This document shows, piece by piece, positions 16,378 through 17,444 of a DNA stretch of 64,000 nt. The notes below the pieces were generated by a model that was given only the letters and a program-made list of their open reading frames with translations, did not search any database and was not told the origin of the DNA. The stretch comes from a phage: sequence record OZ556245.1. One strand, given 5' to 3'. The translations under genes and the position numbers were made by a program. The first letter of the stretch is position 1; each line of letters starts with the position of its first letter.

Positions 16378-17238
16378 TTACACCGCCATCTTTCCTTTAA
16401 TTGGCGGGTGAGATACATAGTTGTTAAGAACAAAATTATGCGGCTTTGCGAATTGACTCAACCAAAATACCTGCGATTCTGTGTCCCATTCATCAAATTC
16501 ATCTGGAAATTTTAATTGTAATTCGCATAAATCCATAGGTTCACGACGCAAAATTTCTTTACATTGTTCTACGTGATTCATATAGATATGAGTATTACCA
16601 CCAGAAAATATCAAATCTCCTGGAATAAGATTACACATCTTAGCTACAATATGAACTAACGTAGCATATGATGCAATATTAAATGGAAGACCGAGGAAAA
16701 CATCTACCGAACGTTGATACCACTGCAAATCCAAATAGCCATTACGCACATTAAATTGATAGAACATATGACAAGGTGGTAATGCCATTTGCTTGAGTTC
16801 AGCTGGATTCCATGCTGAAACAATTTGACGTCTATCATTTGGCAGTTTTTTAATACGATCAACAACTTCTATAATTTGGTCTACACCACCAAAATCACGC
16901 CACTGTTTTCCATAAATTGGACCAAGTTCACCACTATGGTATCCTAAATCTTTTGCTTGATTTTCGTAATTTTCATCCCAGACTGTTTTGCCTTGAATTA
17001 ATGAATCATGTTGAATTAATCGCAAATCATTGACATTTGTGCTTCCCGATAAAAACCATATTAGCTCAGCAATGCAAGCTTTCCAGGCAAGCTTCTTAGT
17101 CGTTACTGCAGGAAAACCTTTAGTTAAATCCCAGCGTAATTTAGTACCGAACAAAGCAATTGTTCCTGTGCCTGTTCGGTCATCGGTTTCATAACCGTTT
17201 TCCAGGATATCTTTAATTAAAAATTGGTATTGTTTCAT
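16378..17238 (-). CDS. td: thymidylate synthase, uninterrupted
   Basis: 286 aa from MKQYQ; ThyA motifs (PPCH, sequence around the catalytic Cys); track ORF starts 4 codons upstream at a TTG. Confidence 0.93.
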   Translation of the reverse strand: MKQYQFLIKDILENGYETDDRTGTGTIALFGTKLRWDLTKGFPAVTTKKLAWKACIAELIWFLSGSTNVNDLRLIQHDSLIQGKTVWDENYENQAKDLGYHSGELGPIYGKQWRDFGGVDQIIEVVDRIKKLPNDRRQIVSAWNPAELKQMALPPCHMFYQFNVRNGYLDLQWYQRSVDVFLGLPFNIASYATLVHIVAKMCNLIPGDLIFSGGNTHIYMNHVEQCKEILRREPMDLCELQLKFPDEFDEWDTESQVFWLSQFAKPHNFVLNNYVSHPPIKGKMAV

Positions 17239-17444
17239 TAGTTCATCCAAGAATATGTAGAAGGATATTTGGCAAAGTTAGGCTTATATCCTAATTTAAC
17301 CATTTGTTTTGCTTTGCGAGTAAATCCTAAAGAACGCTCACCTTTAAGATATTGTTTTGGTGTCATAGGCCCTTGATGCATCTGCCGACAAATAAAAAGG
17401 GCCATAGCATTAGGAACATCCTTAACTTTTAATTTATTGCTCAT
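17238..17444 (-). CDS. small basic protein between frd and td
   Basis: 68-aa ORF; ATG overlaps frd stop (ATGA) and its stop overlaps td ATG (TAATG). Confidence 0.5.

Follow-up and report, generated by a model that had tools for sequence, protein, structure and literature searches.

The question raised by this locus is what a 68-codon open reading frame (ORF) is doing between frd and td, two genes whose ATGA overlap in phage T4 was reportedly documented in 1984, in papers on the T4 frd/td sequence. In the window, by which we mean the whole 64,000-nucleotide stretch of phage DNA analyzed here, the ORF overlaps both neighbors. The sequence-only reading took it to be inserted exactly between the two genes and, from its double coupling, to be co-expressed with the folate/thymidylate enzymes. 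The features at issue are the following, in the direction of reading.

17441..18022, minus strand: frd, dihydrofolate reductase, 193 aa, the upstream neighbor, with 94% nucleotide identity to T4 frd.
17441..17444, minus strand: ATGA, in which the frd stop TGA overlaps the ATG of the 68-codon ORF.
17238..17444, minus strand: the 68-codon ORF (ATG...TAA; phrog_9550 family), with a small basic product equal to pSs-1 YP_009111049.1.
17236..17240, minus strand: TAATG, in which the ORF stop TAA (17240-17238) and the td ATG (17238-17236) have one base in common.
17198..17238, minus strand: the first ~41 nt of td, with 1 mismatch to JS98 and several differences from T4; the right-hand end of the exchanged tract.
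16378..17238, minus strand: td, thymidylate synthase, 286 aa, without an intron, the downstream neighbor, its start overlapped by the 68-codon ORF.

Both overlaps, their positions, and the product as it had been quoted are borne out by the window sequence, and the direct 4-nt ATGA overlap of the T4 genes was verified on NC_000866, where td occupies 143235-145112 and frd 145109-145690 with no ORF between them. At frd/td, the window is exactly 204 bases longer than T4, and a repeated ATGA bounds the additional stretch. The T4 junction reads ...TATAAATGAAACAATACC, and the window reads ...TATAAATGA[GCAAT...GAACTAATGA]AACAATACC; the empty T4 junction sequence is TATAAATGAAAC. The flanking genes are the same, and in both phages TATAAATGA precedes the first downstream start codon. 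The two differ in what that codon starts: in T4, the ATG of the ATGA starts td, whereas in the window, the same ATG starts the 68-codon ORF, and td begins 204 nt later from the TAATG.

We assessed whether the ORF is a gene at all. Its product matched PHROG 9550 end to end (154.5 bits, E = 1.3e-45, all 68 residues aligned to the 68 profile positions). A tblastn search found the ORF in 238 phage records, another search gave 136 records covering the query in full, and the ratio dN/dS against the Marfa and CIP9 orthologues was 0.16-0.32, showing that the ORF is under purifying selection. The end-to-end family match, the 238 records, and the low dN/dS indicate more than a chance reading frame; these comparisons establish the 68-codon ORF as a genuine gene, conserved and belonging to the phrog_9550 family. 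Its base composition is native to the genome, and no paralogue was found in the window.

The gene is also already known, as an ordinary catalogued accessory gene that has a PHROG family and is annotated as a hypothetical protein. Over the surrounding 501 nt, the window matches Shigella phage pSs-1 and a number of further Tequatroviruses with 100% identity; their records carry the label "hypothetical protein," as do the GenBank records of more than 100 T4-like phage genomes. The window product is 100% identical to pSs-1 YP_009111049.1 (gp245), which together with Marfa gp177 and phAPEC8 gp235 belongs to PHROG 9550, a family with no function recorded. A literature search on the phrog_9550 family, the names of the ORF, or "frd-td" found nothing relevant. 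Annotation varies between records: the ORF is unannotated in JS98 (NC_010105, 2501-2707, 98.5% amino acid identity to the window product), in JS10, and in phage Paracelsus, and one IME339 annotation (P0018) shortens it to 42 aa. The label "flagellar biosynthesis protein" in PYPS2T (MH809535) and vB_EcoM_P8 is taken to be a mis-annotation, with no family search supporting it.

Searched exhaustively with HMMER, 1.8 billion representatives (clustered at 50% identity) yielded 11 matches at E <= 0.001, one of them spurious, and a word-indexed search resolved phrog_9550 into 40 clusters at 90% identity. The lengths of the genuine members all fall within 58-108 aa, and their sources look like phage-type records or contigs. 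The spurious match, P0026, is a repetitive protein of 1402 aa that reached E = 1e-8 through a repeated NVPSALGLHVCHQG motif; the score probably reflects repeats or low complexity rather than homology.

Orthologues from other genera place the gene beside td. In JS98 (Dhakavirus, 98.5% amino acid identity), Klebsiella phage Marfa (Marfavirus, 81%), Enterobacter phage CIP9 (Kanagawavirus, 69%), and Serratia phage 4S (genus not assigned, 62%), the orthologue immediately precedes td, its stop codon overlapping the td start codon. The sequence ATGAGCAATAAA at the ORF start is kept in all four phages, and TAATGAAACAATA at its end, containing the TAATG overlap, is kept in JS98, Marfa, and 4S; CIP9 has a GTGA overlap instead. 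With Tequatrovirus, this makes five T4-like lineages in which the phrog_9550 ORF always adjoins td on its upstream side. On the frd side, one or two ORFs of ~111-126 aa, all of them PHROG 1928, separate it from frd in Marfa, CIP9, and 4S, giving the order frd - phrog_1928 - phrog_9550 - td, with two tandem phrog_1928 copies in CIP9. The linkage of phrog_9550 in T4-like phages is thus to td, not to frd. Beyond these phages, phAPEC8 gp235 (Phapecoctavirus) has ~43% identity to the window product. No td was found near the homologues in phAPEC8 and the five metagenomic phage contigs checked, and no gene partner recurred in these six contexts, where the neighbors are small uncharacterized genes, a PIF1 helicase, an RNA ligase, and the like.

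Comparison of the frd-td junction across T4-like genomes, as the sequence-only reading had proposed, showed the 68-codon ORF to be absent from T4 and conserved elsewhere. Within Tequatrovirus, the junction exists in three states: empty in T4 and its close kin, occupied by a 115-aa phrog_1928 ORF in most phages, and occupied by the 68-codon ORF in about a quarter, these shares being estimates from the ranked BLAST tables of a T4-junction search of the phage collection rather than a full census. An uninterrupted match to the T4 junction was confined to T4 strains and close kin (T4T, RB55, RB59, vB_EcoM_112, HY03, SG1, G28, and a few more). The empty junction accounted for roughly half of the best 60 matches and for 2 of 30 in an evenly spaced sample of the 515 matching records. 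About two-thirds of the sampled records match in two pieces ~414 nt apart. The rest match the frd half alone and are the carriers of the 68-codon ORF, numbering 131 records here (515 matched less the 384 with at least 80% coverage) and 136 in the search that counted full query coverage. On these counts, the empty T4 junction is a minority state, and the textbook frd/td overlap is the exception among its relatives. The claim of an insertion between frd and td holds as an exact 204-nt addition relative to T4, but the T4 arrangement against which it was drawn is not the norm.

The 414-nt insert encodes RB32ORF229c/RB14ORF231 (115 aa, PHROG 1928) and occurs in T2, RB14, RB32, RB27, RB33, wV7, and most Tequatroviruses. 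In RB14, this ORF lies at L007 1622-1969; the record describes it as "flanked by 9 bp repeat," and the sequence reads AAATGAAAT at its left border and AAATGAAAC at its right (AAATGAAAY), which puts it at the very point where the 68-codon ORF lies in the window. The two ORFs are alike in this insertion point, in their junction-repeat flanks, in having no assigned function, and in their presence/absence behavior. They differ in that their sequences are unrelated and that the phrog_1928 ORF leaves td uncoupled: with its insertion in RB14, the frd stop is lost, frd gains 11 codons, and a 45-nt untranslated spacer precedes td. The BASEL label "putative homing endonuclease" on the phrog_1928 ORF has no supporting Pfam or PDB sequence match.

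The td gene of the window is a continuous 286 codons, and the group I intron and I-TevI endonuclease gene of T4 td are absent from it. Shigella phage JK08 has the same 68-codon ORF together with a td intron. We rejected a link between the ORF and the intron, as both occur in JK08 (with an I-TevI intron), the ORF alone in the window, and the intron alone in T4.

To place the ORF in time, its identity to other genera can be set against that of its neighbors. Compared with JS98, the window shows 79% nucleotide and 76% amino acid identity in frd, and 76% nucleotide and 84% amino acid identity in td. In the 68-codon ORF, the values are 98.6% (3 differences in 207 nt) and 98.5%. Identity in this alignment rises exactly at the frd stop and ORF start, and falls ~41 nt into td. 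The near identity of the ORF, against 76-79% nucleotide identity for the genes that flank it, indicates a recent exchange between genera in which the ORF moved as a cassette. The more distant phages show a different pattern. The amino acid identities to the window are 49% (frd), 69% (ORF), and 76% (td) in CIP9 and 44, 62, and 76% in 4S, placing the ORF between its neighbors, as expected of vertical descent under fairly strong constraint. Together, these comparisons point to a gene that is old in the T4-like lineage and has also been swapped recently between co-infecting genera.

The family that stands alone in the T2/RB14 slot is the one found upstream of phrog_9550 in Marfa, CIP9, and 4S. For this reason, an older frd - phrog_1928 - phrog_9550 - td order followed by differential loss would be the simplest history, and on it, T4 would have lost both ORFs. 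Differential loss with cassette exchange fits better than a one-off insertion. The three-allele junction and the JS98 exchange were not found in the literature searched; we regard them as modest points of comparative genomics.

The site is not the only variable one in this gene run. Between frd.1 and frd, the window has two extra small ORFs (18022-18623, minus strand) of 119 aa (phrog_3566) and 85 aa (phrog_3183), each overlapping its own downstream neighbor. T4 has a 71-nt gap in this interval, and pSs-1 has one 81-aa ORF; the differing content marks a second polymorphic slot just upstream.

How the gene would be expressed depends on what its overlaps mean. A crude calling of genes across the window gave 94 adjacent minus-strand pairs, of which 33 overlap, 11 through ATGA and 10 through TAATG, and the start/stop overlaps around the 68-codon ORF are an ordinary signature in this genome. 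A scan of 15500-21000 found no strong promoter-like or terminator-like site within or beside the ORF. The ORF thus has stop/start overlaps and a strand in common with its neighbors and no intervening promoter or terminator, the arrangement predicted for a coupled operon gene. The sole terminator-like site in the scanned interval is a strong hairpin (GGGGACC...GGTCCCC, then a T run; 19774-19792, minus strand) just downstream of gene 32, which forms the upstream limit of the frd.3-to-nrdA gene run. Gene 32 (19815-20723) is itself directly adjoined by a gene 59 homologue (20823-21476), and the gap at 20724-20822 lacks T4's segG homing endonuclease gene.

Co-expression of the ORF with frd and td is likely on this arrangement, and in this respect, the inference drawn from the double coupling was reasonable, as no promoter or terminator lies between the genes. 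The part of it that pointed to folate/thymidylate metabolism is not supported, because the overlaps are routine, homologues occur away from td, and phages with near-identical frd and td lack the ORF. Since T4, T2, and most relatives do without it, we infer that the 68-codon ORF would be dispensable for dTMP synthesis.

The product is as rich in Lys and Arg as had been noted: its 13 Lys/Arg (10 Lys and 3 Arg) stand against 2 Asp/Glu (1 Asp and 1 Glu), with a pI of 10.3, a net charge of about +10.6, and a mass of 7.9 kDa. We built an AlphaFold2 model with 30 diverse members as input (mean pLDDT 85.3, pTM 0.64); an earlier prediction from 12 close homologues had been poor (pLDDT 57). Three helices are predicted, spanning residues 13-24, 29-38, and 43-49, with the N-terminal tail and an aromatic C-terminal stretch (LGYKPNF..YSW) extended and a single strand or bridge residue at 12 and at 59. 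Both tails are conserved in phrog_9550, and the invariant or near-invariant columns are Lys-4, Lys-6, Pro-11, Arg-20, Lys-34, Phe-41, Met-48, Leu-51, Gly-52, Tyr-53, and Pro-55. No column of the alignment conserves an acidic residue, His, or Cys, and this speaks against a zinc site or a metal-dependent enzyme.

The HMM and structure searches suggested for the product led to PHROG 9550 and no further. The 30 members had no Pfam or NCBIfam match even at E <= 10 and no match to the PADLOC defense-system HMMs at E <= 1; a profile search found no match to phrog_9550 among PDB sequences, and no clear relative of the predicted three-helix mini-domain was found by sequence or fold. A free-standing homing endonuclease (GIY-YIG, HNH, or similar) was rejected, as the product has no Pfam/NCBIfam match, only 68 aa, and no conserved Asp, Glu, or His. 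Ribosomal protein bS21, considered as another small, basic, helical protein, was likewise rejected, with no match to the Ribosomal_S21 Pfam family for the 30 members at E <= 10.

Based on these data, we lean toward the following reading, which we hold with modest confidence: the 68-codon ORF is a genuine, translated accessory gene of phrog_9550 that resides in a polymorphic frd/td slot, with an expression route and a binding role that we propose here. The ORF, frd, and td would share one mRNA. Ribosomes ending frd, or another ORF upstream, would restart 1 nt upstream and translate the ORF, and its termination would hand ribosomes to the td start. Cassettes would persist at frd/td only if td expression were preserved, and coupling would then be a condition for toleration inside the operon, not a sign of shared function. 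That the double overlap is no mark of shared function is indicated by the routine occurrence of overlaps in this genome and by the RB14 cassette, which leaves td uncoupled.

The size, charge, and conserved-residue pattern predict that the product acts through binding and not through catalysis. The surface formed by basic helix 2, the Gly turn, and helix 3, together with the Lys-rich N-terminal tail, is a candidate nucleic-acid contact. We tentatively rank nucleic acid first among the targets, as the most likely single candidate suggested by these features. A host or phage protein comes next; a host protein bound in takeover or counter-defense is possible but doubtful, and a partner specific to Td is unlikely.

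The second of these targets would make the product a small early protein that neutralizes a host factor and is kept or lost according to the hosts met. The patchy distribution of the gene among near-identical genomes and its recent move between genera agree with such a role, as do its occurrence in several unrelated enterobacterial phage groups, within clusters of small early-type genes, and the small size of a product without an enzymatic signature. However, the product resembles no characterized inhibitor by sequence or fold, the family is absent from the literature searched, and the recorded hosts of carriers and non-carriers belong to the same genera. We therefore consider host takeover or counter-defense a minor possibility beside the nucleic acid-binding accessory gene.

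The constant position beside td invites a different explanation, in which phrog_9550 is a dedicated Td partner, either a subunit or adaptor of the dNTP complex or a regulator of td translation, made in fixed proportion to Td. The gene adjoins td with overlapping stop and start codons in five T4-like lineages, even where other ORFs separate it from frd, and the tract exchanged with JS98 takes in the first ~41 nt of td. Yet vertical descent by itself would keep the gene in a fixed position within a single phage lineage, and the homologues of Phapecoctavirus and the five metagenomic contigs sit among unrelated small genes, away from td. Moreover, T4, T2, RB14, and about three-quarters of the Tequatroviruses have closely similar frd and td genes without the 68-codon ORF, and RB14 td, uncoupled by its 45-nt spacer, shows that td needs no coupling. 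These observations make a dedicated Td partner improbable. We judge equally unpromising a broader proposal, in which an unseen fold would either perform a td-tied job, setting Td output or serving as a tether in the dNTP-synthesizing complex, or be a new counter-defense factor, with frd/td as a dedicated landing site where recombination at the motif of overlapping start and stop codons would swap the unrelated cassettes phrog_9550 and phrog_1928 between genera.

A selfish or neutral passenger, recombining into the frd/td junction without harm to td and of no use to the phage, would account for the precise repeat-flanked bounds (ATGA...ATGA here and AAATGAAAY around the phrog_1928 cassette), for the alternation of presence and absence among close relatives, and for the sharp identity step against JS98. 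The dN/dS of 0.16-0.32, the ~40% amino acid identity, and the columns conserved across unrelated phage families require selection on the phrog_9550 protein, and a 68-aa product that lacks a nuclease motif and conserves neither His nor an acidic residue could not drive its own mobility. A passenger is thus very unlikely. A chance ORF or structured RNA spacer, for which the short length, the missing annotation in JS98 and JS10, and the 42-aa call in one IME339 annotation might speak, is scarcely credible given the full-length family HMM match, the purifying selection, and a protein that still shows ~40% identity after the DNA has diverged beyond alignment. An RNA element was rejected as well, with no excess folding energy (z = +0.45) and a sole Rfam match far below threshold; this match, to beta_tmRNA at 17374-17543 (minus strand; 16.8 bits, gathering score 84, E = 0.016), spans the 3' end of frd and the 5' end of the ORF and was judged to be chance.

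The favored reading of the 68-codon ORF as a coupled accessory gene opens no long-standing question. Its practical value is mainly corrective: the T4 frd/td overlap is exceptional, and the two-sided overlap of a small ORF is, in genomes of this kind, no evidence of shared function. The site offers a small natural experiment, with three alleles at one nucleotide-precise position in an essential operon and one allele clearly exchanged between genera. The phrog_9550 family, being compact, confidently modeled, and without known relatives, is a reasonable candidate for a functional screen.

Among the closest known systems are the PeSL + ORFan cassettes of T4-type phages, small genes without assigned function that are gained, lost, or swapped at fixed sites between conserved genes through recombination in short shared sequences (Arbiol et al. 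2010, PMC2839356; Comeau et al. 2014, PMC4122927). Membership in this class was rejected for the 68-codon ORF, which has no intergenic space on either side and no promoter plus hairpin at its borders. Unlike those cassettes, it lies in a core nucleotide-metabolism operon rather than in a hyperplastic region, lacks early promoter/stem-loop flanks, and has ends that share only the start/stop overlap motif and conserved gene ends. What it has in common with them is the behavior of a small gene swapped at a fixed site.
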